From contig JABWCP010000006.1 in the NCBI GenBank assembly GCA_013360215.1, forward strand, positions 40,470 to 104,469: DNA of 64,000 bases, in the 5' to 3' direction. Within the stretch, counting starts at the first letter, position 1; each line of letters opens with the position of its first letter. This DNA is from a bacterium (GTDB taxonomy: Bacteria; CLD3; SB21). Positions 13,630 through 63,157 of this stretch are shown here, one piece after another. The notes beneath the pieces were generated by a model. It had not been told where the DNA came from and made no database searches. It saw only the letters and a list, made by a program, of their open reading frames with translations. Position numbers and translations under genes: made by a program.

Positions 13630-15135
13630 TCATTTGTTGGAATACGATTTTTTAATCAGTTCGTCCAAATATTTTCTGGGATCATCAAAAACTTCGGGCG
13701 TTACAAGAAAATGTGTTTTACCGGCCAATTTTAATCCGTATTCGTAATCTTTAAAAAGCTCTGCAGCGATCGCCCGGAACGAGCGTTTTTCAGTTTGTGA
13801 TCGCTGAGCGATTTTTTGAATGGCCACATCGGAAAATTCAAAAATAATGCCGTGCGTCGTGAGATACTGCTGTTGAAATTCTTTCATCGAAGAATAGGTG
13901 AGCAGCTTGTTGAGTTCGGCTTGCGGCTGCAAAACGACGTCTTTGGTGACGCGAAATTTACGAATGTTCGTGGACGGTAATTTCTTTTCAAATTTGATCA
14001 ATACGTTTTCTAAAATATTGACTAAGCCGCGCGCGCCTGTTTTTTGGACAAACGCACGTTCTGCAAAAATGTGCAATGCGTCGTCATCAAATTCGACTTC
14101 GATACCGTAAGCGGCAAAATCGCGCTTTTTGCTGAGGATCACGCTGCTGTTGGGGTTTTTTAGAATATTAAATAGCGCGTCAACCGTAAGTTCGTTGAGT
14201 ACGGCGATGACGGGCAGGCGTCCTACAAATTCCGATTCGAATCCGTATTCGACGAGGTCTTCTGTTTTTACGCGTTTCATCAGTTCGCCGCGCGAGAGTT
14301 TAGAAATGCCTTCCTGATCCGAGCCGAAGCCGATGCGTACTTGATTGATGCGCTTGCGGATGTTTTCTTCGATGCCGCCGAAAGCGCCGCTCATTACGAA
14401 TAGGATGTTTTTTGTGTTTACTTTTTTACGCTGCACTTTGCCGGTGCGTTGGGCTTCCATCGCGGCTTCCATTTGGGCGGCCATGTCATGCGGTACGCGC
14501 AGATCCACTTCGGATTCTTCCATAAGTTTCAAAAGGTTCCGCTGAACGCCGGTACGGGATACATCAATACCGCGGTTGTTTTGTGCCGAAGCGATTTTGT
14601 CTATTTCGTCAAGATAGATAATACCGTATTCGGCGCTTTTGATATCGCCGTCGGCTTCACGTACAAGATCGCGCACGAGGTCTTCAACATCGCCCCCGAC
14701 ATAGCCGGTTTCGGAAAACTTGGTGGCATCGCCTTTGACGAAAGGTACACCGATTTTTTTTGCAATCAGTTTGACGATGTACGTTTTACCCACACCCGTA
14801 GGGCCGATGAGAAGAACATTGCTTTTGATGTTACCTACAAGTTTTTGTTCATCCGTGAGCGTGTCTTCCAGTTTCATACGGTTGTAGTGCGTGGCGATCT
14901 TGGTGGCGATGACTTCGATCGCTTCTTCCTGGCATTCGACGAACTGGTTGAGGTATTCTTCCAATTCCTCAGGCTTCAGGTCAAAATTGGTCTTTTCACC
15001 GGATTTCAGCGTTGAACCCTGATTTTTCGTGCCTGCACTGTCTTGTTCCGGATCGGCCGTACCGTATTTTTCTTTTAAAAATTCTTCAAACTCTTTTTTG
15101 AATTGTTCCGAATTGGTCTGCGACGAAATATTCAT
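13630..15135 (-). CDS. ClpX-family AAA+ ATPase lacking the N-terminal zinc-binding domain
   Basis: Walker A GPTGVGKT, ClpX-like ATKFSETGYVGGDVEDL, and an IGF-loop-like VRIGFGS. Start placed at MNISS (ATG 15133-15135) because AAAGGA lies 11 nt upstream; the ORF frame opens at 15168. Confidence 0.65.
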   Translation of the reverse strand: MNISSQTNSEQFKKEFEEFLKEKYGTADPEQDSAGTKNQGSTLKSGEKTNFDLKPEELEEYLNQFVECQEEAIEVIATKIATHYNRMKLEDTLTDEQKLVGNIKSNVLLIGPTGVGKTYIVKLIAKKIGVPFVKGDATKFSETGYVGGDVEDLVRDLVREADGDIKSAEYGIIYLDEIDKIASAQNNRGIDVSRTGVQRNLLKLMEESEVDLRVPHDMAAQMEAAMEAQRTGKVQRKKVNTKNILFVMSGAFGGIEENIRKRINQVRIGFGSDQEGISKLSRGELMKRVKTEDLVEYGFESEFVGRLPVIAVLNELTVDALFNILKNPNSSVILSKKRDFAAYGIEVEFDDDALHIFAERAFVQKTGARGLVNILENVLIKFEKKLPSTNIRKFRVTKDVVLQPQAELNKLLTYSSMKEFQQQYLTTHGIIFEFSDVAIQKIAQRSQTEKRSFRAIAAELFKDYEYGLKLAGKTHFLVTPEVFDDPRKYLDELIKKSYSNK

Positions 15136-31256: not shown

Positions 31257-33692
31257 ATGAAAAAAATCATTCTCATATCATTATTATTTGCACAAAATTG
31301 GAATCCTATTTATTCTCAAGAACAAATTTTACTACCTTCGTTCACGTCAGGATTTGATAAACCATCGGGTTCTGGAGCGGTGATCTCGGCATCCATCGGT
31401 GTGATCGCTGCCGATACCAGTACGGGTTCGGGCGTTTCACTGGGCGGAGGATTTTTCGGTTATACGATCAATACGGTGCCGCCGACACGCGTTGCTAATT
31501 TTACCGCCAATCCGGTAGATACCACACAAGTGACACTGGCATGGCAAGCAAGTATAGGGGACACGTCAAGTTTTCGTTATTTCATATATCGCGGCGCTAC
31601 GCGTACCGGCGCTTATCAGCGTGTGGATTCGACGATCAGAACGCAACTGAATATCAATGATATAGGTCGTGTACGCAAAACAGTGTACTTTTATTACGTG
31701 ACTGCAAAAAATCGTTGGGGTACTTCTTACACATCAGACACGGCACAGGTCACGACCTACGGCGAACCCGATACGCCTTCCAGCTTTACGGCACAATTGG
31801 AGTCAGGCAAAGTCAATCGCATCCAGATGACATGGTCAGCTTCAGATTTTGACCCGTCGCAGTATAAAATCTACAGATCAAACCAAGCAACAACCGGTTT
31901 TGTTGCTATAGATTCTGTCCATAGCGGTACTTTAGTATTCACCGATAGCACACTGCAATTGGGTGCGACATACTACTACAATGTTCGGGCAAAGAATAGT
32001 TGGGGAGAGTCGGCACCCACCATCACGCGCAATGTTACATCCGGAAATCTGACGCTGGCCTATTCCGGTACACCGCCTACCAATGTCACAGAAAATCAAT
32101 CAGCGCTCGTACAGGCTACGATCAATGCGGATCGGGGCAATGGGGATATCGTGAAGCTGTATTATAAGGCCGGCGGCGCGGCTTCTTATTCGGATTCGGC
32201 AGATATGAATTATTCCGGAGGCGTATATTCATATTCGATTCCGTGGAATAAGATTGCTTCGCGCGGTGCCGTTTATTTTGTTCGTGCTCGTGTGGGTAAT
32301 TCAAACCAATCGGAATCTGAAAAACATATCACCGCTGCTATAACTTCCGGTGTGACCAAAAGTAATAGTCAGCCTGTAGCAGTAGCCAAAAAACATGACC
32401 TATCCAAATTTGAAATTATCTCCATTCCTCTCGACATCACCGGCGCAAAAGATGTGAATACAGTGCTTGGATCAATTTTTGGAGAAAAGGGCAAAGAGTG
32501 GGAAATATGGAACTATAGCAGCGGCAATCAGATTTTTACCGGTAATATTGCTTCCGGAAAAGGGTATTGGTTCATTACGACCAAAGAGGGTTCGCTTAAA
32601 ACCGGCGCGGCCAAAACTTTTACTACCGAAACGCCATACACTGTGAGCGTACAGTCAGGATGGAATATTATCGGCAATCCGTTCCATTTCGACGTTTCGA
32701 CGTCGGATATTATTCCCTCTTCCGGAGTCTCTATTGAAAATTCTAAATTCTACACTTGGGGCGTCAACAAAGATTGGCAGGAAGTAAGTTCGATCAAACC
32801 GTGGTTCGGTTACTACGTAAAAGTCATCGGCAATGGGAATTTGCTTATTTATCCTAAAGCGGCCGGGAGTGTTTCTAAACCTCTTATGAGAAGCGTTGCA
32901 TCGGATTTTGACAAAGGCGAATGGTTGATCAATATTCAAGCCGTAAGCGAAGAAATCGCAGATAAACATAATTTTATCGGTGCGCTTTCCCATGCGGATG
33001 ATGCCGTGGATGAAGAAGATTATTACGATACACCGTTACCGCCGGGCGATCAGCGTCTGCACCTCTATTTTCCGCATAAGGATTGGGGATCGAAGTCTGA
33101 TGACTACGGGATCGATATGCGCCGCGTATCGGAGGAAGGCCATACGTGGGATTTTGAAGTGTCAACGAATATCACGCGTTCTCATATAGTGATCGGCGAG
33201 CCGGTGAATCTGCCGGAAAATTTCAGTGTGCGCGTTATGGATACGGATTTGCGTGTAATGTACGATGCGAAGCAACAAAAAGAAATTCCTGTAATCCTGA
33301 CTTCCAAAACGAGCGACGCGCGACATTATAAAGTGCTCGTAGGAACGGAAGCATATATCAATGCGCACGATATGGGTTTTTTGGGCTTGCCTACAGGATT
33401 CGAATTAAATCAAAACTATCCCAATCCCTTTAATCCGACAACGACAATCAAGTTTGCGCTTCCCGTTGCATCAAAAATTGAAATTACGATTTATAATGCT
33501 TTAGGTCAGGTGGTGCGTAAGCTTGCAGATCGCGAGTATGCGGCGGGGTATCAGTTCGCCCAATGGGACGGAAAAGACAATCGTGGAAGCATGGCGGCGT
33601 CCGGAGTGTACATCTACCGTCTGACCGCACGCAGTTTAGACGGTTCAGGTAAAAGTTTTACGAAATCCCAAAAGATGCTGCTGATGAAGTGA
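31257..33692 (+). CDS. Secreted fibronectin-type-III repeat protein with T9SS (Por) C-terminal sorting domain
   Basis: Signal peptide; FN3-like modules (W/Y/T pattern: LAWQAS...YFYYVTAKN; MTWSAS...YYYNVRAKN). C-terminal NQNYPNPFNPTTTIKFALP...IYNALGQVV...GVYIYRL is a typical T9SS CTD. Confidence 0.75.
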   Translation: MKKIILISLLFAQNWNPIYSQEQILLPSFTSGFDKPSGSGAVISASIGVIAADTSTGSGVSLGGGFFGYTINTVPPTRVANFTANPVDTTQVTLAWQASIGDTSSFRYFIYRGATRTGAYQRVDSTIRTQLNINDIGRVRKTVYFYYVTAKNRWGTSYTSDTAQVTTYGEPDTPSSFTAQLESGKVNRIQMTWSASDFDPSQYKIYRSNQATTGFVAIDSVHSGTLVFTDSTLQLGATYYYNVRAKNSWGESAPTITRNVTSGNLTLAYSGTPPTNVTENQSALVQATINADRGNGDIVKLYYKAGGAASYSDSADMNYSGGVYSYSIPWNKIASRGAVYFVRARVGNSNQSESEKHITAAITSGVTKSNSQPVAVAKKHDLSKFEIISIPLDITGAKDVNTVLGSIFGEKGKEWEIWNYSSGNQIFTGNIASGKGYWFITTKEGSLKTGAAKTFTTETPYTVSVQSGWNIIGNPFHFDVSTSDIIPSSGVSIENSKFYTWGVNKDWQEVSSIKPWFGYYVKVIGNGNLLIYPKAAGSVSKPLMRSVASDFDKGEWLINIQAVSEEIADKHNFIGALSHADDAVDEEDYYDTPLPPGDQRLHLYFPHKDWGSKSDDYGIDMRRVSEEGHTWDFEVSTNITRSHIVIGEPVNLPENFSVRVMDTDLRVMYDAKQQKEIPVILTSKTSDARHYKVLVGTEAYINAHDMGFLGLPTGFELNQNYPNPFNPTTTIKFALPVASKIEITIYNALGQVVRKLADREYAAGYQFAQWDGKDNRGSMAASGVYIYRLTARSLDGSGKSFTKSQKMLLMK

Positions 33693-34148: not shown

Positions 34149-37100
34149 ATGATACACAACACGTTAATGCTATTCCGGTTATATTTTTTTTATTTGCTCT
34201 TAACAGGTTATCTATCGCAAATATGCGCACAGCCTGAAGCATATCATGTAGATAAGATCGGCCGTGAACACGGCCTTTTGCAAAACAGGGTAACGTGTCT
34301 TTTGCAAAGTCGCGACGGTCGGATATGGATCGGAACCCGTGAAGGGTTGCATTGTTACGATGGCTCACTAATGAAGTTGTACCTCTCGGATTCTCTGGCC
34401 GCATCACTATCGAGTAATTACATAACAGCGATTGCCGAAGACAGTCTGGAAAGTATATGGGTCGGCACCGAACGTGGCTTAAATCGTATAAATCGTTACT
34501 CCGGGGAGGTTTCCCGTCATCCGGTGATTACGGAAGATCAGCATTCAGTTTCAGATGGTCGCGTAACAAGTCTTTTTACTGATGCTCGCGGGCGTTTATG
34601 GGTCGGGACTTTGCAGGGCTTATTTCGGTTTTCGGAAAATGGCTTTATATCCTATCCACTAAAATGGCCAGACAAAACGGATTCGACGATATTGTTTCCT
34701 GTACGTGTCATGTATCAGCCGCTTCATAATCCGGATGAACTCTGGATCGGCACTACCGGACTAGGTATGCTCGTAATGGATATGGACAAAGGTGTTTATA
34801 CACGCGTAGCTGCGGTGACTACCCGCGCACCGACTGCTGATATTTCGACTGTATGGTCTATCTATAGTCAGGGAGACTCCGTCGTGTGGATGGGCACCCC
34901 CAATGGTCTTATCCGATGGGGGCGAACTTATAATCAATGGCGTTCATACCAGCCGCAAAAAACAGATCGGTATAGTATCAATGATTTACGCATACGATGT
35001 GTAACGACTGCCGATGCCTCGGGCTTATGGATCGGTACATCGAACGGAGGGTTAAATTATTTCGACATGGTTTCGGAACGTTTTTATCATATAGGCAATG
35101 ATCCCGATAATGCTGTTTTTTTTCGTGATTATGTCAATGCTTTAATCAAAACTTCTGACGGTACATTATGGGTCGGAACGCATGCTCATGAACTATATAA
35201 AATATCGAAAACGGCGATACAGTATAAGCATTATGCCACCAAAGACGGATTACCGCACGATATGGTGCGCTGCTTTTGGGAAGACATAGACAGCGCCGTC
35301 TGGGTAGGGACAGAAAATGGCGTAGCACGATGGGCCGAAGGCCAATTCAGCGTATTCCCGGTTGCTATGAGTAACTTACAAATACGGATGATCTACCGGG
35401 ATCGTAGGCAAAACTTATGGATCGGTTCCCGATTAGGAGGTATTTGGCGGCAAGATGCGAACAAAACGATAAGGCGATTTGTACAAAATAAAAATTTGCT
35501 CGGCTCGCTTTCGGGAAATCGCGTTTACACCTGTTACGAAGATACGCTGTCAGATGTACTGTGGGTAGGTACTTATAAAGGTGGATTAAACCGTTTTGAT
35601 TATAGCAGCGCACGCTTTGAACTCTACCGGTATGATTCATCACGATTTGGAAATTCTAATTACGAATTTGTCAATGCCATTGCTTTACAATCGGATTCCA
35701 TCGTGTGGCTGGGTACACGGCATCACGGATTGATTCGTTTCGATGTGCGCCGACGGCAGTTTCGTTATTTTTCCGGAGAACGTTATGGCGCCGAAGACAA
35801 TCATGTATATGGATTGTGCATTGATCGAAAAGGGTATTTATGGGTTGCGACCGGTAAAGGGCTTCAGCGATGGGACATGCAAAATCTGACACCCACGGTA
35901 TTTACCGTTAAGGACGGTTTGGCTAATGATATGGTGTATTCAGTGCAGGAAGATTTGCACGGTCGGATTTGGCTTACCAATAACAATGGTCTGACGGTGC
36001 TGCGTTGGGGTGATGAAAATCAAAAGCCATCGGTTACTAATTTTTCCGGCGGTAAAGATTTGCCTATACGTCAGTTCGAGCCCGGGTCGGGCTTCAGAAA
36101 AAAAGACGGTACTTTACTTTTTGGAGGCGTCGAAGGGTTTATTCATGTATTCCCGGAGAGCGTTGAAAAAAAAGATAATCTTCTTAGGCCCTATCTTACA
36201 CGGTTTGAAGTTTTTCAGGAAGCGTGGCCATTGGATACCGTGATAGATCGAAAAACGGCGATCGTACTCCCGTATGATAAAAATTTTTTTACTTTTCAGT
36301 TCTCAGCCATCGGGTTTCAGCGTTCCGATGAGTTGGAGTTTGAATATCTATTGGAAGGTTTAGATCGCCATTGGGTGACTGTACACCGAGGTCAGCGAGA
36401 TGTATCTTATGCCAATATTCGATCAGGCGAGTATTTCTTTACATTGCGGGCCAAGCTTGACGGTGCAATCGTGGGCATGCCCGCACGAATAAAGGTTATC
36501 GTTCAAACCGCATGGTGGGATACCATACTTTTTCGTCTATCTATAATTGTGATCGTTTTGATTTCCGGAGCCGGCATATTCCGAATGCAATCAAAGCGCA
36601 TGCATAAGAGAAACAAAGAACTCAGGGAATTATCCAATCATCTTGTGCAAGCCCGTGAATCCGAAAGGCTCAAAATAGCCCGCGAAATTCACGATGAATT
36701 AGGGCAGAGCCTTGCGGTGATGAAAATCGAAGCATCCGTGGTTGATGATGACCATACTTCCATAATACATCTGATCGACGAGGCCGCTCGAAAGGTCCAG
36801 TCTATTGCACTGGAACTTCGTCCGGCTATTTTAGACGACATCGGTTTATCGGCAGCAATAGCGGCGCATATGCGGGATATTATCTTAAAAACGAATATCC
36901 ATTGGCGGTTGGATATAAATGATGTAGAAGCATCCGACTTGGCTAATATTACGGCGTTCAGGATTTTCCAGGAGTGCGTGACCAATATCCTGCGCCATTC
37001 CAACGCCACCGAAGCTTCCGTAACGCTGAGTCAAACGCAAGGTAAACTATTTTTAACCGTCGATGATAACGGATCGGGAATCGATGAAATACATCTTACG

Positions 37101-37235
37101 AGCAGTAAATCAATCGGCCTGATCGGCATGCGTGAGCGTATCCGTGCTGTCGGCGGTCATATTTTTATCAAAACGGCTGTCGGACAGGGAACCCATATCC
37201 GTGTTGAACTGCCATCAGAACCCGTGGAGTCATGA
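34149..37235 (+). CDS. Sensor histidine kinase with periplasmic beta-propeller (Reg_prop/Y_Y_Y-type) sensor, HisKA_3 and HATPase domains
   Basis: Signal peptide; many WVGT/WIGT propeller repeats; TM before ERLKIAREIHDELGQSL H-box (NarX-type); HATPase motifs DDNGSGI and GLIGMRER. Confidence 0.85.
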   Translation: MIHNTLMLFRLYFFYLLLTGYLSQICAQPEAYHVDKIGREHGLLQNRVTCLLQSRDGRIWIGTREGLHCYDGSLMKLYLSDSLAASLSSNYITAIAEDSLESIWVGTERGLNRINRYSGEVSRHPVITEDQHSVSDGRVTSLFTDARGRLWVGTLQGLFRFSENGFISYPLKWPDKTDSTILFPVRVMYQPLHNPDELWIGTTGLGMLVMDMDKGVYTRVAAVTTRAPTADISTVWSIYSQGDSVVWMGTPNGLIRWGRTYNQWRSYQPQKTDRYSINDLRIRCVTTADASGLWIGTSNGGLNYFDMVSERFYHIGNDPDNAVFFRDYVNALIKTSDGTLWVGTHAHELYKISKTAIQYKHYATKDGLPHDMVRCFWEDIDSAVWVGTENGVARWAEGQFSVFPVAMSNLQIRMIYRDRRQNLWIGSRLGGIWRQDANKTIRRFVQNKNLLGSLSGNRVYTCYEDTLSDVLWVGTYKGGLNRFDYSSARFELYRYDSSRFGNSNYEFVNAIALQSDSIVWLGTRHHGLIRFDVRRRQFRYFSGERYGAEDNHVYGLCIDRKGYLWVATGKGLQRWDMQNLTPTVFTVKDGLANDMVYSVQEDLHGRIWLTNNNGLTVLRWGDENQKPSVTNFSGGKDLPIRQFEPGSGFRKKDGTLLFGGVEGFIHVFPESVEKKDNLLRPYLTRFEVFQEAWPLDTVIDRKTAIVLPYDKNFFTFQFSAIGFQRSDELEFEYLLEGLDRHWVTVHRGQRDVSYANIRSGEYFFTLRAKLDGAIVGMPARIKVIVQTAWWDTILFRLSIIVIVLISGAGIFRMQSKRMHKRNKELRELSNHLVQARESERLKIAREIHDELGQSLAVMKIEASVVDDDHTSIIHLIDEAARKVQSIALELRPAILDDIGLSAAIAAHMRDIILKTNIHWRLDINDVEASDLANITAFRIFQECVTNILRHSNATEASVTLSQTQGKLFLTVDDNGSGIDEIHLTSSKSIGLIGMRERIRAVGGHIFIKTAVGQGTHIRVELPSEPVES

Positions 37236-37236
37236 T

Positions 37237-37857
37237 ATGTATGTGCTTATTGTAGATGATCATGCCGTTGTACGCTTTGGCGTTGAAAAAATATTGAGCG
37301 CCGAATTTAAAGAAGTACGTATTGACGAAGCATCCGACGGAGAAAAAGCTTTGGAGCTATTCAGAATTTCGGATTATGATCTTATTTTGCTTGATATGGC
37401 TCTACCCGGGCGCAATGGGTTTGATGTCCTTCGGCATATTAAGACTGAAAAACCGGATCAGCGTGTTTTGGTATTATCTATGCAGACACAGGAGGAGTAT
37501 GCCTTACGCGTGCTCAAGGCCGGTGCAAACGCTTTTGTCTGTAAGACATCACTGACGGATGAACTTATTGTAGCCATACATCGTGTAATGCGAGGCGGTA
37601 GATTTGTCTCCGCACCTATTGCCGAAGCCGTGACTGTATCATTTGGAACGGATGAGGTTATACACCGAAAACTCTCTCAGCGCGAATTTCAGGTGTTGTG
37701 CCTGATCGGTGGCGGGAAAACGGTAACTGAGATAGCGGACGAATTGTGCATCAGTGTAAAAACGGTCAGCACCTTACGTGAGCGCTTATTGAAAAAACTA
37801 GGACTGAATACCACGGCTGAAATCATACGTTATGCGATCGAGAATAAATTTGTCTGA
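37237..37857 (+). CDS. Response regulator, NarL/LuxR family
   Basis: MYVLIVDDH receiver; C-terminal LuxR HTH (LSQREFQVLCLIGGGKTVTEIADELCISVKTV). ATG lies 1 nt after the kinase stop codon. Confidence 0.85.
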   Translation: MYVLIVDDHAVVRFGVEKILSAEFKEVRIDEASDGEKALELFRISDYDLILLDMALPGRNGFDVLRHIKTEKPDQRVLVLSMQTQEEYALRVLKAGANAFVCKTSLTDELIVAIHRVMRGGRFVSAPIAEAVTVSFGTDEVIHRKLSQREFQVLCLIGGGKTVTEIADELCISVKTVSTLRERLLKKLGLNTTAEIIRYAIENKFV

Positions 37858-38830: not shown

Positions 38831-38987
38831 AGCTATGGGATAAGAATTTCATTTTAAGTATAAAAAGCGGGTTTAACCTCGCTTTTTTTTATTAAAAAAA
38901 TTTTCAGTTTGTAATAATTTAGTCAAAATTTTGCTTTTAAAGTTTTGATAAAACTTCGTTTATGAGGTGAAATTTTTTATGACAAAT

Positions 38988-39007
38988 TTATGACAATTAT
39001 CATAGGG
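38988..39007. promoter_or_regulatory. Operator-like motif TTATGACAATTATCATAGGG upstream of the multiheme cytochrome gene
   Basis: Near-palindrome ATGACAATTATCAT. Identical flanks TTTTATGACAATT / TCATAGGG recur at 40641..40660. Confidence 0.45.
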
Positions 39008-39080: not shown

Positions 39081-40430
39081 ATGAGAAGTAACTTGATGAG
39101 ATTTGCAGGCATCGTCGCACTACCATTAGTATTTTTAGCGTTTTTGTTTATCAATAGCTGCGAAGGCCCGAGAGGCCCCGCCGGAGCGGATGGCAAAGAT
39201 GGTACAAATGGCACAAATGGTACCGATGCAAACGAAACATGCAAAACATGCCACAATCCCAATGATGTGGATCGTATCAAAATTGAATTCCAGTTTTCCA
39301 AACATGAATACGGCGAAGCCGCTTTTGAAGAAGCCGGCAATACATCTTGCGCCGTATGCCACACGCAACAAGGATTCCTGTATGTTGTTCAGAACAATGT
39401 TCCGTCAACATTTACGTTGAATGCAGGTACCGGCAAGTACTCCAATAGTTATGCTACTATTTCTTCCCAGGCCTTAGGCGAAATTGGTTGCGGTACGTGC
39501 CATGCCAGTACGCATACGACGTATGGTGCTGCGGATACGGTATTAACGACGAATGCGGCTGTTGCGATGAATATGTGGAAAGGCAATAAGACGATCAATT
39601 TGGCTCAAGACAATGGTCGTTCTAATCTTTGCATCAAGTGCCATCAACCGCGTCCTATGACAAAGAGCACGACGCTCAGTAATGGCGATATCGTCAATTA
39701 TGATTCTTTAGCATTAGATCCGAATCGGATGTTCTATGATTCAACGACGGGTGCTTCCAATACGCATACCTATCCCAGCTATCGCATGCATGTGCACTAC
39801 GGTGTAGTAGGTGCTGTATTTGCAGGTATGGGTGGTGTAGAATTCACAGGATCTAAAACAGTTCAAAGTTCAACGCACACTTCCGTTGCGTCCTGCCAAG
39901 ATTGTCACATGGCGACGGTCAGTGGTCGTGGTGGCGGACACACATTTATGGTGCAGGGTAACTTTAATGGTTGCAATACCTCCGGTTGCCATACCGGCGT
40001 AAGTTCCAGCAACTCTACCTTGTGGACAAATCCTCGGAACACGATCAAAGGTTTGCTCAATACATTGGCTACGAAGATCAATGCGGCCGGCGGCGGAACA
40101 CCGATCCTCCACGCTGACAGTGATACTGAAACCAATTTGTGGGCAGGTTTGACGACAGGCAATTGGGATGGATATCTGAATATATATGATCCTTCATCCA
40201 ATCCCGGCGGGGCATGGAGAAATCCCAATCCAAGCGGCTCATGGACACAAGCTCAAAAAGATGCAAACTTAGCATTACCGAAGTTCCCATCGCTGAAGTA
40301 TGTACAAGTCGGTGCGATGATTAACTTCCAGTTTGCACTGAGAGAAGCCAGCCTCGGTATTCACAACTACAAATATTCGGAAGCTCTGCTGACGAATACG
40401 ATTGAAAAAATGACGGATGCAGGCTTTTAA
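39081..40430 (+). CDS. Multiheme cytochrome c lipoprotein with N-terminal collagen-like GXY stretch
   Basis: Lipobox FINSC; 7 consecutive GXY triplets (GPRGPAGADGKDGTNGTNGTD). Five CxxCH motifs (CKTCH, CAVCH, CGTCH, CIKCH, CQDCH) and one CNTSGCH (Cx4CH). TAGGAGG RBS. Confidence 0.8.
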   Translation: MRSNLMRFAGIVALPLVFLAFLFINSCEGPRGPAGADGKDGTNGTNGTDANETCKTCHNPNDVDRIKIEFQFSKHEYGEAAFEEAGNTSCAVCHTQQGFLYVVQNNVPSTFTLNAGTGKYSNSYATISSQALGEIGCGTCHASTHTTYGAADTVLTTNAAVAMNMWKGNKTINLAQDNGRSNLCIKCHQPRPMTKSTTLSNGDIVNYDSLALDPNRMFYDSTTGASNTHTYPSYRMHVHYGVVGAVFAGMGGVEFTGSKTVQSSTHTSVASCQDCHMATVSGRGGGHTFMVQGNFNGCNTSGCHTGVSSSNSTLWTNPRNTIKGLLNTLATKINAAGGGTPILHADSDTETNLWAGLTTGNWDGYLNIYDPSSNPGGAWRNPNPSGSWTQAQKDANLALPKFPSLKYVQVGAMINFQFALREASLGIHNYKYSEALLTNTIEKMTDAGF

Positions 40431-40660: not shown

Positions 40661-40774
40661 TGTATTGCGACTTGGGCATATCTTTTGATGAAATAAGTGC
40701 CTTTCTGTATTTTTATTAGCTTTATTTTGACATATAATTTACGACGATTCATGGACTTGAAGCCTGAGGTTGCT

Positions 40775-42148
40775 ATGAATATCAAAAAAAGATTAGTTGG
40801 CTACTTGATAGTGTTGTGCGGCGCAGTCGTACTTTTTGACGCATCAGCCCAAACGCTTTCAACGCGGCTTTCGACATCGGTGTATTCCTGGGAAAATCAG
40901 TATGCGGATTCAACCACACAAAAAAGTTTTCGTGGTTATCAAACGGCGATTTTTCATGCCAACGGGATTTGGAAATCCAATATTTCGTTGCACGGATATG
41001 TAACCGGAAGTTATGATCTGGCCGGTGCGCGGCAGGACAATCCGGATTATCGCGTGTACAATCTTTATGCGCAGTGGAAATCCGATCCGACAAAAAATCA
41101 TCGTTGGGAAGCCCGCGTAGGGCGTCAGCAGGTTTATGCCGGTGTACGCGCACCCTCGATAGATGGTGTCCGTTACGACTTTTATAACGCCGACAAATAC
41201 GGATTTATGGCTTACTACGGTGCACTGCCTCCGGCCGATGGAACTGTAAAAATGGGGCGCCCGGCGGATCGTTCCGCGTTTGGTGCCAAGGTGATGACTT
41301 CCAAGTTGGCGCAAACTCATATGGCCCTAACGTATGTTGAACGACGCAGCATTGGTCAATATTACTATACGATCAATGAGCGCAACGCGGATACCCTCGT
41401 TTACAGTCCGGATTTGGATGAGCGGCTTATCGCTTTTGATGCCAATCGCAATTTTTTCGGAAAGATCAATTGGTTTTATAATGTGACGTACGATGCGTTG
41501 GCTTCCAACGTGCGTAAGATATCTACGGATGTGCAATTCCAACCGTTGCATACGCTGTGGTTTGCCGTACAGTATGCGTACCGCCGACCGGATCTTTATT
41601 ACAATACCATTTTTGCGAAGTTTGATGACATTGATGCCAATCAGGAACTGTGGGTGCGCGGAACGTATCAATTCAATACCGATTGGTCGTTTAACGGTGA
41701 ATATGCCAACGTATTTTACAAAATGAAAGACGCGTGGCGTTACGGTGCGGGTCTCACGTATCAACGTACCAACGTATCTTATCAATGGCGTTTGGGTTAT
41801 GGCGGCACGATCAAACAGATTTCGTTAAGTTCGTATTACCCTGTCCGTCGAAACATGTATTTGTATGGTGGGTTGACTTATGCTACATATGACATGAAAG
41901 ATGACATCACATCGAGCGATTTTTCGTCAAGCAGCACACAAGATATCTACCGTCAGGTATATCAATATACCAATAGTTCCATGACGGCCGTTCTGCGCTG
42001 CAATTATAATCTGATGCAGGCGATGAACGTGGATGTCGAAGGACAATACCTTTCGCAAAACATCAAAACATCGCCGGTTTTTGCCGGATCGAAATATGAC
42101 CTGCGCTTTTTTGTGCGCGCCAATTATTGGTTCTTCAATAAAATATAA
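40775..42148 (+). CDS. Outer-membrane beta-barrel (porin-like) protein
   Basis: Signal peptide (start set at MNIKKRL, ATG 40775); Y/W/G-rich amphipathic beta-strand pattern throughout. Sits between two multiheme cytochrome genes. Confidence 0.55.
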   Translation: MNIKKRLVGYLIVLCGAVVLFDASAQTLSTRLSTSVYSWENQYADSTTQKSFRGYQTAIFHANGIWKSNISLHGYVTGSYDLAGARQDNPDYRVYNLYAQWKSDPTKNHRWEARVGRQQVYAGVRAPSIDGVRYDFYNADKYGFMAYYGALPPADGTVKMGRPADRSAFGAKVMTSKLAQTHMALTYVERRSIGQYYYTINERNADTLVYSPDLDERLIAFDANRNFFGKINWFYNVTYDALASNVRKISTDVQFQPLHTLWFAVQYAYRRPDLYYNTIFAKFDDIDANQELWVRGTYQFNTDWSFNGEYANVFYKMKDAWRYGAGLTYQRTNVSYQWRLGYGGTIKQISLSSYYPVRRNMYLYGGLTYATYDMKDDITSSDFSSSSTQDIYRQVYQYTNSSMTAVLRCNYNLMQAMNVDVEGQYLSQNIKTSPVFAGSKYDLRFFVRANYWFFNKI

Positions 42149-42166: not shown

Positions 42167-43261
42167 ATGAAGAAATTACTCGGAATAATACTCATTACGG
42201 CGGTCGGACTCATGGCCGCTGCCTTGGTTTTCTTTCCTTCTTCGGAGCCGCTCAAAGCTTCGTCGCTGGTGAAAACTTCCGCTCAGATGCAAGATAAGAT
42301 CGGCAGCCGTTATGCGATTATATACAAAGAAGAGGATCGCTCCAAGCTGATCAAACACAGTCACAAGTTTCACGCCACTAAAGGCGGCGCTGAATGTAAA
42401 GACTGCCATGCTTCGATCACTTCTAGTGAAAAAGCGATGGACAGCAATCTTCCCAAAATGGATGCCTGCTACGAATGCCACGACAAAGAAACGACGGACT
42501 GTAAGCTCTGCCATCTTGAGCCCAAAGAACCGTATTCATCCTACAAAGCGCCCAAACGGGAATTGACCTTTAATCACAAGGCGCATCTCGGGATGAAAAA
42601 TGTAAATTGTGAAACCTGCCACAGCGAAATAACTAACAAAGCGTATACCGGCGCACGTACACTGCCTGCGATGGAGTCTTGTATGGGTTGCCATGACGGC
42701 GCACAGGCGAGCAATGATTGTAAAACTTGCCATACGGACATCCGTTTTATCAAACCTGCGGATCATATGGCCGGATTTATTCGTACGCATAAACACGAAG
42801 TGGCTACGCAAGGCGATGCCAACTGCCGCATGTGCCATAGCACCGAATCCTGCGAAGATTGCCATAATGGCGGTAATCTGAATAAAATGAAAAATAGAAA
42901 CGAATTCAGCCCGTCCGGTACACCGTCGGGTATGAGTGAAAATAGCAGTCAGATTATTAGTAAAGCCCATGCACTGGATTTCATTTTCACACACCGTTTT
43001 GATGCCAAGGCTAAAACTTCCGAATGTCAAACCTGCCACGAAGCTGAGAGTTTCTGTGTACAGTGCCACAATAATAATGATAAAATGTCTAAACCGGCTT
43101 GGCATAAGGTAGCTGGTTTTACGTCGGGTGTAGGCGGCGGTTTGCACGCTCAGTTAGCCAAAAAAGATATGGAAAACTGCGTAAGTTGCCATAACATCGA
43201 AGGGCAGGATCCGACTTGTTACACGTGTCATAAAGCCGATGGTTCACTTAAAAATTTCTGA
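42167..43261 (+). CDS. Dodecaheme cytochrome c (12 CxxCH), periplasmic/membrane-anchored
   Basis: 12 canonical CxxCH motifs in 364 aa, about one heme per 30 residues as in MtrA/OmaB-type cytochromes. N-terminal signal/anchor. Confidence 0.85.
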   Translation: MKKLLGIILITAVGLMAAALVFFPSSEPLKASSLVKTSAQMQDKIGSRYAIIYKEEDRSKLIKHSHKFHATKGGAECKDCHASITSSEKAMDSNLPKMDACYECHDKETTDCKLCHLEPKEPYSSYKAPKRELTFNHKAHLGMKNVNCETCHSEITNKAYTGARTLPAMESCMGCHDGAQASNDCKTCHTDIRFIKPADHMAGFIRTHKHEVATQGDANCRMCHSTESCEDCHNGGNLNKMKNRNEFSPSGTPSGMSENSSQIISKAHALDFIFTHRFDAKAKTSECQTCHEAESFCVQCHNNNDKMSKPAWHKVAGFTSGVGGGLHAQLAKKDMENCVSCHNIEGQDPTCYTCHKADGSLKNF

Positions 43262-43271: not shown

Positions 43272-43655
43272 ATGAAAAAGAAAATATTAATAATAATGTT
43301 ATCCCTTTTGGCCTTCGTGGGCTGCAGCGAATCCGAAGATATTGGTAATGTACCCGGCCCACCGGATCCGCCAAAACCATACAGTTATGTAACCGACATA
43401 AAAGCCGTACTTGATGATGGATGTGCATCACCTTGTCATTCGACGGCTGTGAAGCTTGGAAATTATGATTTATCCACGTATGCCGGTGTTTTAGGAAATG
43501 GGTCCGATGCAACACCGAATGCTATACCCGGTGATTCGACCAGTCTTATTATCGTCAAATTAAAATCCGGACATCCTTCAGTTGATGTATCCAGGTTAGC
43601 GATGATATTGCAGTGGGTCTATCAGGATAGCTGCAAAGAGACACTGCCGGACTAA
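43272..43655 (+). CDS. Small lipoprotein with a single CASPCH (Cx3CH) motif
   Basis: Lipobox FVGCSES; GAGGA RBS; CASPCH possibly heme-binding. Confidence 0.4.
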   Translation: MKKKILIIMLSLLAFVGCSESEDIGNVPGPPDPPKPYSYVTDIKAVLDDGCASPCHSTAVKLGNYDLSTYAGVLGNGSDATPNAIPGDSTSLIIVKLKSGHPSVDVSRLAMILQWVYQDSCKETLPD

Positions 43656-50218: not shown

Positions 50219-50947
50219 ATGCGATTTTGTTTTTTAATGTTATGCGCATTGAGTTTTACCGGTTGTGACAAAGAACCTGTTACCGAAGATACGTTAATAA
50301 CACGCGGGCGTGAACTGTTTCGCAGCCTTCAATTTTCGTCGGACGGTAAAACGTCCTGTGTGACGTGTCATCCCGAAGGGCACACGGATAACCGTAACTG
50401 GCATTTTGCAGCGATCCACGACACGACGGCCGGTATTCCCGATTCATTTCGCACCATTACTTTATGGGGCATAGCACAAACCGGATCGCCGTATCTTTGG
50501 AAAAACTCCTTTCGTTCGTTGGAATCCGTTACGCGTTTATATACGGATACTATTATGGGTGGGACGGCCTCGGAGGATGAAGTGGCCGCTTTAGTGGCGT
50601 ATCAAAGATCGCTGGCATTTCCAAAAAATCCGAACTTGGCGGACAACGGTCAACTGACAGAGGCGCAAGCACGCGGAAAGAGCATTTACGAAGACCCTAA
50701 TCGCGGCAACTGTGCGCCATGCCATCCTGCTCCGACCTACGGAAGTCCTATTCCGAAAAATATTTATACCGGCGGCACATTTCGTACTGTCGGATTACGC
50801 GGTCTTTATTCGATAGCACCTTATTTTCATAATGGTTCGGCCAAAACACTGCACGAGGTGATTGAACATTATGCCGGCAATGGGCTTATTGCACCGTTGA
50901 CCGCGCAGGAACGTGACGATCTCGTAGAATATCTTAAAACTTTATAA
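50219..50947 (+). CDS. Di-heme cytochrome c peroxidase (CCP/MauG) family lipoprotein, short form
   Basis: Lipobox FTGC; two CxxCH (CVTCH, CAPCH). C-terminal FRTVGLRGLYSIAPYFHNGS...LTAQERDDLVEYLKTL matches the CCP family C-terminus. Confidence 0.65.
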   Translation: MRFCFLMLCALSFTGCDKEPVTEDTLITRGRELFRSLQFSSDGKTSCVTCHPEGHTDNRNWHFAAIHDTTAGIPDSFRTITLWGIAQTGSPYLWKNSFRSLESVTRLYTDTIMGGTASEDEVAALVAYQRSLAFPKNPNLADNGQLTEAQARGKSIYEDPNRGNCAPCHPAPTYGSPIPKNIYTGGTFRTVGLRGLYSIAPYFHNGSAKTLHEVIEHYAGNGLIAPLTAQERDDLVEYLKTL

Positions 50948-50968
50948 TATCTAACGATCAGTACAGCT

Positions 50969-51775
50969 ATGAAACATGACAAAATGAGATTTGTACTTAT
51001 TCTGAGTTTGATTTTTTCGGTTATGCAATCTTGTGAGAAAGAAAAAATCAGTGAAGACGCGCAAATCGCTTATGGAAGAAAACTTTTTAACGATACTAAG
51101 TTTTCCGGCAGCGGACAGTTAAGCTGCGGTACTTGTCACCCTCAAGGAGATATGGATAACAAGCAGTGGCATTTGGACTTGATTCATGATTCACTTGGCG
51201 GTGTGGCGGTATCCTATTCCACTCCGACCTTATTTGGCGTAGCGGAGACGGCGCCCTATCTATGGAAAGGTCAAGGTGGCAGCGATCTGGATACGTTGAC
51301 CAAAACGGTTATCACGGGTATTATGGGCGGTACGGCCACCGATGAAGAAATAAAAGCCATCGGCGCATATATGCGATTTTTGGATGTTCCTGCCAATCCT
51401 TTTCGAAATGATGATGGTTCTTTAACTGCCGAGCAAGCGCGCGGTAAAATTGTTTTTGAAAATCAGGGTAAGTGTAATATTTGTCATTCCGGAGAGACGC
51501 TCTCCGGTAAGTTTTCGATTCAAATCAAAGCGGCTAGACCGGCATTTGATGTACCGTCTTTGCGATGGGTTTTTGCAACGGCGCCGTACTGGCATGACGG
51601 ATCGGCCGGGTCATTGCGCGCTGTGATCAATCATTACGCAGATACCATCACTACGGCGCAGATGACAACATGGAAGTGGAACGGCACCGGACAAGTGACG
51701 CCAAAACCCATATTCGATATCGAATTGACAGAGCAGGAAAAAAACGATTTGATCGAATATCTAAAAACGTTGTAA
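50969..51775 (+). CDS. Di-heme cytochrome c peroxidase (CCP/MauG) family lipoprotein, tandem paralog
   Basis: Lipobox MQSC; CGTCH and CNICH; APYWHDGSAGSL...LTEQEKNDLIEYLKTL. Confidence 0.65.
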   Translation: MKHDKMRFVLILSLIFSVMQSCEKEKISEDAQIAYGRKLFNDTKFSGSGQLSCGTCHPQGDMDNKQWHLDLIHDSLGGVAVSYSTPTLFGVAETAPYLWKGQGGSDLDTLTKTVITGIMGGTATDEEIKAIGAYMRFLDVPANPFRNDDGSLTAEQARGKIVFENQGKCNICHSGETLSGKFSIQIKAARPAFDVPSLRWVFATAPYWHDGSAGSLRAVINHYADTITTAQMTTWKWNGTGQVTPKPIFDIELTEQEKNDLIEYLKTL

Positions 51776-51793
51776 TCAAATTATTTTGAGGAT

Positions 51794-53008
51794 ATGGCCA
51801 TGAGTAAATTTTGCTGGATTGTGATTGCAGTGTGTTTATTGGCGGCACCGATTCATGCACAGGAAGAAACGGTTGCTCCGAATACGGAAGCCGGAACGGA
51901 AGGAACATCCGTAGGTTTTGGCGGTTTTGTGGATGTCGCGCATGCCGTCGGGCGTAAAGCGGGGAATGCCAATACGCTTGGGGATAATAATTTTAACAAT
52001 ATGCGCACATTGTTGATGTTTAATGCACAACAGGGTTCGAAAATACGCGCCGATGTAGAAGTTCTTTTTGATGATCGTTCTAAGGATCGAATTCGCTTGC
52101 AAGGTGCATTTGTGACAATTTTTGATGTACCCAATGAAGCCGTCAATTTTATGATCGGAAAAATTCCGAATCCGTTCGGTAACTTTGCCAAGCGTGAATT
52201 TTCCGATGTCAATCCTTTGATCGGTCAACCCCTGATGCGGCAATACCGCACGGCATTGGATTGGAATAATCTCTGGAACAATGCGGAACAGGTCGTCCGA
52301 AAGAGTGAACGAAAAAAATATGATGGCAATATACCGATTTCGCGATTTGAAGCGGCAACGCCGACGGTATACGATGCGCGATGGGATTTTGGTGTACAAA
52401 TGTTCGGCTCGATCGGTTGGTTTGAATATCAAGCGGCTGTCACGGAAGGTTCCATATCCAATCCGGAGGCGGATCTGAATAAAGGCAAACAATTTGTCGG
52501 TCGTATCGGTTTCAATCCGGTTCCCGGTATTCGTATCGGTTTTTCCGGAGCATACAATCCGTATTTGTCGAAAGCCGATGACCAGCGATTATTGGAAGAA
52601 GGTAAAGGACTAGGCGAGTACCATCAGACGGCGTACGGTGCGGATTGGGAACTGAGTTATCGCTATTTTATGATGAGTGGTGAATTTGTACGCAGCACTT
52701 GGGATGCGACGGTGATCGAAGGCGAACTGTCTAACTGGAGCGTTTATTCTGATATCAAGTACAAACTGCATCCACGATGGTATATCGCAGGTCGGTACGA
52801 TATTATGCGTTTTTCCGAAATCCGTGAATCTAAATTAAGTTCTAAAAAAACGCCGTGGGATTATAATGTTCAACGCTATGAAGCGGGTATCGGATTTCGT
52901 GTGACGACCGATGTGACATTGAAGCTTGTCGAACAGTGGACGCGATTTGATCAATCGGAAATCCCGATGAGCCGTTTGACGGCTGTTCAATTATCCGTAC
53001 CATTTTAA
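51794..53008 (+). CDS. Putative outer-membrane (porin-like) protein
   Basis: Signal peptide ending AQEE; alternating aromatic/glycine pattern. Ends in a hydrophobic/aromatic strand (QLSVPF). Confidence 0.4.
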   Translation: MAMSKFCWIVIAVCLLAAPIHAQEETVAPNTEAGTEGTSVGFGGFVDVAHAVGRKAGNANTLGDNNFNNMRTLLMFNAQQGSKIRADVEVLFDDRSKDRIRLQGAFVTIFDVPNEAVNFMIGKIPNPFGNFAKREFSDVNPLIGQPLMRQYRTALDWNNLWNNAEQVVRKSERKKYDGNIPISRFEAATPTVYDARWDFGVQMFGSIGWFEYQAAVTEGSISNPEADLNKGKQFVGRIGFNPVPGIRIGFSGAYNPYLSKADDQRLLEEGKGLGEYHQTAYGADWELSYRYFMMSGEFVRSTWDATVIEGELSNWSVYSDIKYKLHPRWYIAGRYDIMRFSEIRESKLSSKKTPWDYNVQRYEAGIGFRVTTDVTLKLVEQWTRFDQSEIPMSRLTAVQLSVPF

Positions 53009-61705: not shown

Positions 61706-63157
61706 TTAAAAAGCAAATTCTAATGCGCGTTTGGCAGTAAAATAACGGTTATAGATGTAGGTTGATTTGGCCTCAATCTCTATTTTATATATTCCTGAAG
61801 GTGCTAATTGTTCGGTCATAGCGGGTTGTTTGCCTTGTGAAGAATCGGACTTATTTTGTTCGCGAAATTGTAAAATGTCCCGCAACGGGCTGTTGGATTT
61901 ATATGCTCTGTTCCACTGTAGCGTTTTGATTCCCGGCGATGTCATGCTATTACGGGCAAGTGTAGCGACAAGTTTTCCTTTTTCATCCACGATGCGGGCC
62001 GTAAGACGGGATGTTTCCGGTAAATAAAACGAAAATACTAACTGACTATCCTTGAGCGCGACATTGAGATTCTGTATGTCTGTTCCGATATGATAATATT
62101 GTGCGCTGATTTTATCGGCGATAAATACCTGACCAAATTTTTTTCCTATGGCGATGGCACGAGGTTCTATAAATTGATTTTCTCCGTCACCGGGTGAACC
62201 GAAAGTGCCCATATAACGAAGATCACGATCAAACTTATGAATAACATGGTTTTCTGCGTCGGTAACCCACACATTATTAAAACCGTCAATAGCTACCGAT
62301 GTCAGATTGACTTTGTCGAAGCCATATTCTGATGAAACCACGCCCATTTGAAAATGTCCATCGAATCCTAATTTTTGAATGCGTGTGCCATCCATGTCAA
62401 CGACGATAAAAAAGTGGTCTTGTGTGAAATTATCCGGGTCACTGCCATCTGACACGGCAATGGCATCGGGACGATACAGTGACAATGTACCGGAAGCGTC
62501 AGCCGCATTGTCCCAAATCTGACACGGAATGAGGTTGGAATCTAATACCTGAATACGATCATTTTTATAGTCGGTCACGTAGACTTGATTTTTTTGATCT
62601 ACGGCTACGCCGCGCGGTTCATCATATTCGCCGGATTTGCTTCCTTTTTTTCCTGAAGCTTTGACGAAAAGCAAATATCCTCCGGGATTCTTTAGTTTGA
62701 CGATACGATTATTACCGGTATCGGATATATAAACATCACCATCACTATTGCAAGCGATGCCACGCGGACGTTTGAGTTTTTGCTGAGGACCTTTGCCTTC
62801 ATACACGTCTAAGCCCTGCATAGAGCTGTTGAAGATGATATTATTCTGACCGGAATTGACACCGTAAGCCGTGAGATCATCGTCGTCATTACGATTATCG
62901 GGATCGTCGGTAGATTTTAAGCGGGTAACGGCCAAACCGCGAGGATCCGAAGGCGTGATGTCAGAGCGTCCTATCAATGCCATAAATGCAAATAAATGAA
63001 CTGCCGTGGCTTTGTGAATCGGTGCGTGATTAGCGGGAGGATATACCAGAAGAGATTCTGATTTTCGAATACGTGGTTTTGTGTCTTCCGCAAGATCTTG
63101 AGATCGGCCAAACGAAGTAACAAAGAAAAACAAAATAATTAAAAAGTAATGTTTCAT
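61706..63157 (-). CDS. Secreted NHL-repeat beta-propeller protein
   Basis: Signal peptide; NHL-type repeats (YISDTGNNRIVKL, VYVTDYKNDRIQVLD, VWVTDAENHVIHKFD). Confidence 0.6.
   Translation of the reverse strand: MKHYFLIILFFFVTSFGRSQDLAEDTKPRIRKSESLLVYPPANHAPIHKATAVHLFAFMALIGRSDITPSDPRGLAVTRLKSTDDPDNRNDDDDLTAYGVNSGQNNIIFNSSMQGLDVYEGKGPQQKLKRPRGIACNSDGDVYISDTGNNRIVKLKNPGGYLLFVKASGKKGSKSGEYDEPRGVAVDQKNQVYVTDYKNDRIQVLDSNLIPCQIWDNAADASGTLSLYRPDAIAVSDGSDPDNFTQDHFFIVVDMDGTRIQKLGFDGHFQMGVVSSEYGFDKVNLTSVAIDGFNNVWVTDAENHVIHKFDRDLRYMGTFGSPGDGENQFIEPRAIAIGKKFGQVFIADKISAQYYHIGTDIQNLNVALKDSQLVFSFYLPETSRLTARIVDEKGKLVATLARNSMTSPGIKTLQWNRAYKSNSPLRDILQFREQNKSDSSQGKQPAMTEQLAPSGIYKIEIEAKSTYIYNRYFTAKRALEFAF

Follow-up and report, generated by a model that had tools for sequence, protein, structure and literature searches.

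A conserved collagen-like Gly-X-Y tract between the lipobox cysteine and the first heme motif of an uncharacterised hexaheme cytochrome family

Introduction

Collagen-like proteins of bacteria, such as Scl1 and Scl2 of Streptococcus, BclA of Bacillus and Bucl8 of Burkholderia, have uninterrupted Gly-X-Y triplets that lack hydroxyproline, are rich in Pro at X and in charged or polar residues, vary in number among strains, and form a rod that bears a globular head. The known members have tens of triplets and act as adhesins, in spores or as efflux tails. Repeats of another kind are found in PgcA of Geobacter sulfurreducens, a triheme protein described as 'hemes on a string', which is a lipoprotein cytochrome with low-complexity repeat tethers of variable repeat number (PMC5732950; see also PMC10570954). 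Here we describe a cytochrome that combines elements of both. In a 64-kb stretch of bacterial DNA (contig JABWCP010000006.1, positions 40,470 to 104,469; hereafter the window), one gene encodes a lipoprotein-type hexaheme cytochrome c in which seven Gly-X-Y triplets lie between the lipobox cysteine and the first heme motif. An earlier note on this DNA had drawn attention to these triplets. Its conservation and its homologues indicate that the tract is real, is kept by selection and represents the short version of a module with 15-80 triplets in other members of the family.

A Gly-X-Y tract behind the lipobox cysteine

The cytochrome gene (39081-40430, forward strand) has an AGGAGG ribosome-binding site 8 nt 5′ of its ATG, and the N-terminal part of its product reads MRSNLMRFAGIVALPLVFLAFLFINSC-E-GPRGPAGADGKDGTNGTNGTD-ANET-CKTCH. 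Cys27 (39159-39161) is invariant in an alignment of 91 sequences of the close family (alignment A1), in which Glu28 is at least 90% conserved. The lipobox of the window protein, I-N-S-C, has an Asn at −2 that is atypical of the pattern [LVI][ASTVI][GAS]C; relatives have classic lipoboxes (L-A-S-C, L-T-S-C, F-S-A-C) at the same place. The tract comprises the 21 residues from G29 to D49, and heme motif 1 begins five residues past it. Seven uninterrupted triplets, as the earlier note described them, are thus borne out by the translation: the interval 39159-39227 runs exactly from Cys27 to Asp49. The position between lipid anchor and heme domain is also that of a real conserved element, and the wording 'directly after' the cysteine is nearly exact, Glu28 standing between Cys27 and the first Gly.

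When the mature protein (11% Gly) was shuffled 200,000 times, a run of at least seven Gly-X-Y triplets arose 11 times, giving a chance of about 5e-5. The underlying DNA had been called repetitive, and this is true to a modest degree. Tandem Repeats Finder reports a weak 9-bp repeat (Table 1), whose codons (ggt aca aat / ggc aca aat / ggt acc gat) differ among copies at synonymous sites, and the longest exact 9-periodic run in the tract is 8 nt.

Conservation and length across relatives

An identical protein was present on 12 contigs from several archives. A word-indexed search returned 1200 homologues, all of them without a name or annotated as 'hypothetical' or 'cytochrome c3 family'. Among the matches listed (120, at 59-67% identity), all 120 have C-E-G-P-x-G right after the cysteine, followed by three to nine triplets and then by D-A-N-E-T/S-C-x-x-C-H. 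A profile search of 1.84 billion cluster representatives yielded 839 relatives, 486 of them at E <= 1e-10. The window protein belongs to a large, uncharacterised, mainly Bacteroidota family that spans hundreds of sequence clusters, none of them named. Relatives occur in bins of Prolixibacter, Mariniphaga and Tangfeifania, and the complete chromosomes OY761460.1 and OY820914.1 also carry the family. NCBIfam has no family that matches the window cytochrome.

We surveyed the N-termini of the best 150 profile relatives and the first 120 homologues, of which 256 had a readable N-terminal region; the survey takes in a distantly related sister family, also hexaheme, of ~330-400 aa. All 221 complete lipoprotein-type N-termini carry the tract, with 2-16 triplets, mostly six or seven, and with no interruption of the Gly periodicity. 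The five proteins in the survey that lack it are fragments of 87-293 aa without an N-terminus. The earlier note had considered that orthologues might lack the tract entirely, and the survey instead shows it to be real.

The ends of the tract are more uniform than its middle. A single Glu separates the cysteine from the first Gly in 167 of the 221 relatives, and in about 30 the gap is T/V-K-E. In about half of the relatives the tract opens with GP(M/R/A) and GPA; its last triplet is GxD, and its middle varies. The tail between tract and heme motif is ANET in 107 of the 221; it is four residues long in 171 and one residue long in 41. Over 1455 triplets, the X position is occupied by P (32%), A (15%), K (15%) and T (11%), and the Y position by D (38%), A (19%), N (14%) and M (8%). 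GKD, GAD, GQD, GQN and GTN triplets are abundant among relatives; these, like GLP, are triplets that we take to be typical of the streptococcal Scl collagens. No other protein with such a leader was found among 1059 open reading frames (ORFs) from 80 related loci and the window, a limited sample of ~1 Mb. The leader therefore appears specific to this cytochrome family, and we rejected the idea that it is a general lipoprotein feature.

Tract length differs even among close relatives. Proteins ~65% identical to the window protein have 3, 4, 6, 7, 8 or 9 triplets, and four of ten other 90%-identity clusters are polymorphic by whole triplets (6/7, 5/6, 6/7 and 6/7/8), length being fixed in the other six. 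The 90%-identity cluster of the window protein has nine members with an N-terminus; each carries seven triplets, and within the tract they differ at X or Y positions only (R31I, T42N, T45S). The earlier suggestion that the length may vary thus holds by whole triplets in those four clusters but not in the window's lineage, where it is fixed at seven, and a hypermutable contingency locus in that lineage was dropped from consideration for the same reason. On this comparison of relatives, the tract gains and loses triplets even at short evolutionary distances and keeps its register each time. In the DNA, the tracts have a 9-bp self-identity of 0.43 against 0.30 in control sequence, and exact periodic runs of 15-23 nt occur in only a few loci. 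In P0072/P0360/P0363 and other 90%-identity clusters, consecutive triplets sometimes switch together between near-identical proteins (GAD x3 against GED x3), which suggests turnover of repeat units rather than independent point mutations.

Two relatives have other architectures. P0238 (797 aa) combines the collagen leader with a Big_7 domain and 13 CxxCH motifs, and the lipoprotein P0245 has a ~150-aa non-collagen domain in place of the tract.

Long collagen forms of the cytochrome

Five relatives of 579-911 aa have an ordinary signal peptide, an N-terminal domain of ~115 aa, a Gly-X-Y run and the same cytochrome domain (E 1e-137 to 1e-59). Three of them exceed the Pfam Collagen cut-off of 27.2 bits: P0136 (25 triplets, 51.4 bits), P0144 (17 triplets, 32.8 bits) and P0154 (25+5+5+45 triplets, 113.6 bits). 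The remaining two, P0147 and P0159, have eight triplets each; P0147 scores below the cut-off and P0159 has no Collagen match at E <= 0.01. Two lipoprotein forms also lie above it, P0140 (15 triplets, 30.3 bits) and P0179 (16 triplets, 35.9 bits). In P0136, P0144, P0154, P0140 and P0179, the cytochrome domain (E 1e-137 to 1e-40) follows the collagen directly on its C-terminal side, and 1-6 residues separate the end of the collagen from heme motif 1 in every case.

The N-terminal domain of the long forms recurs as the usual N-domain in Bacteroidota proteins named 'collagen-like protein' at NCBI, with 904 matches. A search with it for other heads on such stalks was uninformative; the hits were mostly short fragments ('collagen-like protein, partial') broken inside the repeats.

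Immediately 5′ of each long variant with fetched context (3/3) lies a gene with a C-terminal sorting domain of the type IX secretion system (T9SS), at 6589-7950 of locus L085, 619-1092 of L087 and 2480-2953 of L089. Two of these proteins are 157 aa long and consist of a signal peptide, ~55 Gly/Thr-rich residues and the sorting domain; they are possibly cell-surface anchor partners of the long variants. On the 3′ side of P0136, L085 encodes an NHL-repeat beta-propeller protein and then a 1050-aa fused CcsBA cytochrome c synthase (10038-14332). The window also encodes an NHL-repeat protein (61706-63157, reverse strand), far from the cytochrome.

A probable collagen-type stalk and its alternatives

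We think it probable that the Gly-X-Y tract is a stiff collagen-type stalk, a spacer of whole-triplet length between the lipid anchor and heme 1. The earlier note had proposed a flexible or extended tether. A spacer of variable length agrees with a tract that is conserved and varies by triplets; flexibility is unlikely as its main property, because the Gly periodicity is strict, insertions and deletions comprise whole triplets only, the end triplets are conserved and homologues have collagen domains, all of which favour a structured stalk. The conserved end triplets would act as caps, GPx-GPA beside the lipid anchor and GxD-ANET beside heme 1, with the middle triplets setting the distance from anchor to heme. 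In collagen geometry each residue contributes a rise of 0.286 nm. The distance would thus change in steps of 0.86 nm per triplet, and the 21 residues of the window tract would span ~6 nm if helical. Such a stalk would fix how far the heme domain stands from the membrane in which the protein is anchored.

Whether the stalk goes on to form a homotrimeric triple helix is a closer call, and we put the chance a little short of even. A triple helix is made plausible by the long, Pfam-significant collagen domains of homologues. Three lipid anchors would clamp it at one end and three cytochrome heads at the other, and a trimer would bring three copies of heme 1 together at the tip of the stalk. A tentative extension, to which we give slightly less credence, is that the whole family consists of homotrimers on a true collagen triple helix, with triplet number as a molecular ruler for the distance of the hemes from the membrane or cell surface: 3-16 in the lipid-anchored forms and up to ~80 in secreted forms that have a T9SS-sorted partner. 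Since genes for an outer-membrane barrel and a multiheme cytochrome are adjacent to the cytochrome gene (Table 1), the protein probably takes part in an envelope electron-transfer chain, together with the barrel and other multiheme cytochromes. Trimerisation, rigidity, the membrane and orientation, and the physiological electron donor and acceptor are elements of this picture that we infer.

A number of observations weigh against it. Collagen model peptides show that seven triplets are too short for a stable triple helix on their own; only two of the seven window triplets contain Pro, and hydroxyproline is absent. Twenty-six relatives have only three triplets. The Pfam Collagen model (PF01391) scores the window protein at 16.4 bits (E 0.0077), below the cut-off, and the oligomeric state cannot be deduced from the closest solved relatives because they are only weakly similar. 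With respect to location, the Bacteroidetes surface-export signal (LES) has the consensus C-X-K-(D/E)2-X (PMC5080379), and we also applied a looser form of it, two or more acidic residues at +4/+5 that follow a polar or basic one. The window's C-E-G-P-R-G does not fit this signal, a rule derived from Capnocytophaga, Bacteroides and Flavobacterium that may not transfer; the ~30 relatives with C-T/V-K-E-G have a single acidic residue and do not fit it either. Surface exposure is therefore unsupported by the N-terminus. Finally, the cytochrome gene looks monocistronic and apart from the unit of barrel and 12-heme cytochrome genes, because terminator-like hairpins bracket it, and this barrel and 12-heme arrangement is found in only three of 80 related loci, most relatives having neighbourhoods that differ from the window's.

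The alternative that survives best is a monomeric extended linker, polyproline-II-like or disordered, that, in the manner of most lipoprotein tethers and of the (Pro-Thr)n strings of PgcA, would give the heme domain reach and freedom and would form neither a triple helix nor a trimer. We regard this as unlikely, though not negligibly so. Tracts of 3-9 triplets in close relatives argue against an autonomous triple helix, as does the sub-threshold Collagen score of the window tract, and the monomer model from AlphaFold2 (AF2) offers no structure for it: residues 24-54 are unstructured (pLDDT <50), with the heme domain confident. Such low values would be expected of a segment that folds only as an oligomer, and disorder would look alike. 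PgcA shows that repeat tethers on lipoprotein cytochromes exist (PMC5732950; see also PMC10570954). A simple linker has no need of Gly at every third position, however, and yet the periodicity is unbroken in 221 relatives, with insertions and deletions that keep the register. Nor does it account for the Pfam-significant collagen domains of 25-80 triplets that homologues carry at the same position, or for the sequence conservation of the first two triplets and the last.

It is improbable that C-E-G-P-x-G-P-A-G serves mainly as a recognition element, whether as a lipoprotein sorting signal or as a collagenase-type cleavage site (X-Gly in P-X-G-P) that would free a soluble cytochrome. The opening pair of triplets, GPM/GPR and then GPA in about half of the 221 relatives, is far better conserved than a spacer requires, but this function would leave unexplained the variable further triplets and the long collagen domains of non-lipoprotein homologues. 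M-G-P-A presumably resembles the collagenase substrate Leu-Gly-Pro-Ala. In the case of PgcA, the lipoprotein gives rise by processing to a free form of 41 kDa (PMC5732950), but no protease gene is consistently adjacent in the related loci, and the motif does not match the one described Bacteroidetes export signal.

Very improbable is a role as an acidic strip beside heme 1 that would capture Fe, Mn or Ca or attach to a mineral surface. The net charge of the window tract is only about −1, many relatives have few acidic residues and triplets of the GPA/GPQ/GPT type (P0185, P0197, P0200), and the Gly periodicity would be left unexplained, even though Asp or Asn fills 52% of Y positions across the 1455 triplets and the repeat regions of PgcA have been proposed to bind Fe(III) oxides (PMC5732950). 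An assembly artefact or chance low-complexity run, for which the short length alone would speak, is refuted by recurrence on 12 contigs with seven triplets in all nine cluster members, by the shuffles, and by retention of the tract across hundreds of relatives.

If the stalk is indeed a collagen triple helix, the cytochrome would be a trimer with three copies of heme 1 at the tip of a rod, at a spacing tunable by 0.86 nm per triplet. This would bear on how cells span fixed periplasmic distances or reach past the outer membrane. The cytochrome would then be the first redox protein on a collagen tether, and electrons would move across or beyond the envelope by a new design. Bacteroidota are abundant in sediments, soils, digesters and on corroding metal, and their envelope electron-transfer machinery is almost unstudied. 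Short hydroxyproline-free collagen segments that are clamped at both ends may also interest protein engineers.

Heme motifs and fold

The window cytochrome has five CxxCH motifs, starting at residues 54, 90, 137, 184 and 272, and one Cx4CH motif, CNTSGCH, which lies outside the interval 39159-39227 under which the earlier note had listed it. At the homologous site, which follows a conserved GGH-x-F...F-N-G, 144 relatives have C-x4-CH with the consensus C-N-[TVA]-[TS]-G-C-H, and 34 have an ordinary CxxCH, among them P0117 of the same family (FNGCNVCH). Given the invariance of its Cys and His residues and its exchange for CxxCH in homologues, we read the Cx4CH motif as a genuine sixth heme site, a two-residue expansion of a canonical one. 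In another relative, P0275, the first heme motif is CLRPCH (Cx3CH).

Dedicated heme lyases are known for other non-canonical motifs, namely the CXXCK of NrfA and the CX15CH of MccA. The earlier note extended this to Cx4CH, stating that the motif usually needs a dedicated lyase. We found that unsupported: CX4CH is a recognised minor heme motif (PMC11492766), heme 3 of hydrazine dehydrogenase has it (PMC6469936), the site is CxxCH in 34 relatives, and the window encodes no lyase. No cytochrome c biogenesis gene lies within the 64-kb window, and no lyase of CcsA/NrfEFG type was found at L002 or L014, loci of the same sub-lineage. The search for a lyase nearby, which the note had proposed, had a mixed outcome, as a fused ResB-CcsA (CcsBA) synthase of ~1025 aa is encoded within the fetched flanks of 35 of 80 related loci; of the 61 loci with 4.5 kb or more of upstream sequence, 25 have it on that side, and it also lies two genes from P0136. 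This synthase may be dedicated to the cytochrome or simply the sole one of those genomes. We see no sign here that Cx4CH requires a special lyase. The alternation of CxxCH and Cx4CH at one site would make a clean system for studying the specificity of heme attachment by CcsBA.

Seven His residues outside the motifs are invariant in A1, a number that could provide bis-His ligation of all six hemes. Such ligation would favour electron transfer over catalysis. No CXXCK active-site motif is present in the window cytochrome.

Among Pfam models, Cytochrome_C7 (33.9 bits, cut-off 24.8) and Cytochrom_CIII (29.5 bits, cut-off 22.9) match above their cut-offs. Just below are MtrC/MtrF domain II/IV (PF22113, 28.9 against 30 bits) and Cytochrom_C552, the NrfA family (21.3 against 24.1 bits). 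An AF2 model built on 91 sequences (pLDDT 81, pTM 0.80) has a confident heme domain and long C-terminal helices, and a Foldseek search of the PDB found no significant fold match for it (E 2.8), MtrC included. A profile search of the PDB gave weak matches to 6I5B (E 0.008), which is OcwA, a cell-surface terminal reductase of Thermincola, and to the octaheme nitrite reductase 8RV0 (E 0.012); both take in a shared C-terminal G-[IV]-H-N helix. A mapping of the six hemes onto those of NrfA was abandoned, as it would have relied on sub-threshold alignments.

Genomic surroundings

The features of the cytochrome gene and its neighbours are collected in Table 1. The window has a GC content of 44%.

Table 1. 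Features of the collagen-cytochrome gene and of its surroundings in the window.
Feature	Position	Strand	Basis or remark
Two-component pair: Reg_prop/Y_Y_Y histidine kinase and LuxR-type response regulator	34149-37857	+	Upstream of the cytochrome
Second terminator-like hairpin, upstream of the cytochrome	38862-38887		Consensus scan
Hexaheme cytochrome c gene, uncharacterised family, lipoprotein-type, 449 aa	39081-40430	+	Translation, Pfam, homologues
Signal peptide M1-S26, hydrophobic, lipobox-like I-N-S end before Cys27	39081-39158	+	Sequence reading
Cys27 (presumed lipid-modified) and Glu28	39159-39164	+	Alignment A1, relatives
Collagen-like tract, seven Gly-X-Y triplets without a break: GPR GPA GAD GKD GTN GTN GTD	39165-39227	+	Translation
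Weak 9-bp tandem repeat, 2.8 copies, encoding GTN GTN GT	39199-39223	+	Tandem Repeats Finder score 43, 87% matches
Junction A-N-E-T, conserved, then heme motif 1 CKTCH (aa 54-58)	39228-39254	+	Relatives
Heme motif 2, CAVCH	39348-39362	+	Cys/His invariant in A1
Heme motif 3, CGTCH	39489-39503	+	Cys/His invariant in A1
Heme motif 4, CIKCH	39630-39644	+	Cys/His invariant in A1
Heme motif 5, CQDCH	39894-39908	+	Cys/His invariant in A1
Cx4CH motif CNTSGCH, aa 298-304	39972-39992	+	C298, C303 and H304 invariant in A1
Terminator-like hairpin, 11-bp stem (7 GC pairs), T tail, just 3′ of the stop codon	40456-40483	+	Consensus scan
Predicted large outer-membrane beta-barrel, 466 aa, ~24 strands	40751-42148	+	AF2 pLDDT 80, all-beta
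364-aa cytochrome, 12 CxxCH motifs, N-terminal signal or anchor	42167-43261	+	Sequence
Small lipoprotein, 127 aa, mature N-terminus CSESED (LES-like), CASPCH (Cx3CH) motif	43272-43655	+	Sequence; LES from PMC5080379

Upstream of the cytochrome, TTTATGACAA occurs twice as a perfect direct repeat with 11-nt spacing at 38976-38996, ~85-105 nt 5′ of the start codon. It may be a regulator site, for example for the LuxR-type regulator at 37237-37857, and from its position the two-component pair could possibly regulate the cytochrome.

Foldseek matched the predicted barrel to FimD/PapC usher barrels and porins at E of about 1e-10. The barrel has no Pfam family, and a search of 5.8 billion proteins returned only 18 homologues. 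It adjoins the collagen-cytochrome gene in L001, L002 and L014. Its homologue P0504 (F9K33_11135) and the cytochrome homologue P0061 (F9K33_11140) have consecutive NCBI locus tags, and are thus adjacent in their genome. As the arrangement is common to 3 of 80 loci, the context seen in the window is lineage-specific, and we rejected a conserved operon with the window's barrel and 12-heme genes. The CASPCH motif of the small lipoprotein might bind heme. We had considered this protein as a counterpart of the small CxxCH lipoprotein of other loci and dropped the idea, BLASTP finding no similarity.

Elsewhere in the 80 related loci, the neighbours include a DUF5777 beta-barrel (47 loci), cytochrome b561 (52), a membrane multiheme cytochrome (49), a small CxxCH lipoprotein (41), a class-I cytochrome c (38), and NrfD-like (26) and NrfC-like (25) proteins. 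A divergent Crp/Fnr regulator is present in 58 of the 75 loci with enough upstream sequence. Our literature search found no paper on DUF5777. Judged by these neighbourhoods, the protein belongs, across the superfamily, to sets of genes for respiratory or envelope electron transfer, an outer-membrane barrel among them. In locus L090 (7001-11222), from the sister family, two paralogous collagen-cytochromes of 407 and 406 aa, both with Pfam Collagen matches, lie in tandem and are followed by a 139-aa protein and a DUF5777 barrel, and a divergent Crp/Fnr regulator lies upstream of the pair.

Two further loci in the window concern redox proteins and secretion. In a second cytochrome cluster (50219-53008), two MauG/cytochrome-c-peroxidase-like diheme proteins of 242 and 268 aa are encoded side by side, and next comes a 404-aa protein without a Pfam match. 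An 811-aa protein (31257-33692) carries a FlgD-Ig-like domain and a T9SS C-terminal sorting domain, which indicates that the organism has a type IX secretion system, as in the Bacteroidota/FCB group.

Comparison with known systems

Gene context brings to mind the MtrCAB and other porin-cytochrome conduits of Shewanella and Geobacter, in which a lipoprotein cytochrome gene likewise lies next to those for a large barrel and a periplasmic multiheme cytochrome. The window protein has six hemes rather than ten, its barrel is unrelated to named families, a hairpin separates the genes, and most relatives adjoin a small DUF5777 barrel instead. A likeness to NrfA, octaheme nitrite reductase and OcwA is seen in weak profile matches, all scoring below thresholds, and in the NrfC/NrfD-like genes near 25-26 related loci.

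Tetraheme cytochrome c3 and heme 3 of hydrazine dehydrogenase have the same rare CX4CH motif, with four residues between the cysteines (PMC11492766, PMC6469936). Those proteins belong to different families; the insert of the window protein follows C-N-[TVA]-[TS]-G-C-H and its site is CxxCH in some homologues.

PgcA, a precedent for a repeat tether on a lipoprotein cytochrome, differs in having (Pro-Thr/Ala)n between single-heme domains and no Gly-X-Y; there is no sequence relationship and no implied trimer, and PgcA is proteolytically released.

Rods of defined length that are trimeric and position heads or set an envelope distance are found in C1q, the collectins, ColQ-tailed acetylcholinesterase and the trimeric lipid-anchored Lpp of E. 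coli. The likeness would be one of functional logic only, by analogy: there is no homology, Lpp is a coiled coil, and none has a redox cofactor.

With the bacterial collagen-like proteins (PF01391), the window tract shares uninterrupted Gly-X-Y, and its long cytochrome homologues pass the Pfam model. It differs from them in having seven triplets (2-16 across the lipoprotein forms), in beginning one residue past the lipobox cysteine, and in bearing a multiheme head. Our full-text literature searches found no paper on a collagen-linked cytochrome, in agreement with the earlier note, which knew of no description of such linkers. Bacterial collagens, lipoprotein multiheme cytochromes, repeat tethers and CX4CH are each known, and their combination appears to be undescribed. 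What appears new is a collagen module placed between the lipobox cysteine and heme 1 and conserved there across a large Bacteroidota family.

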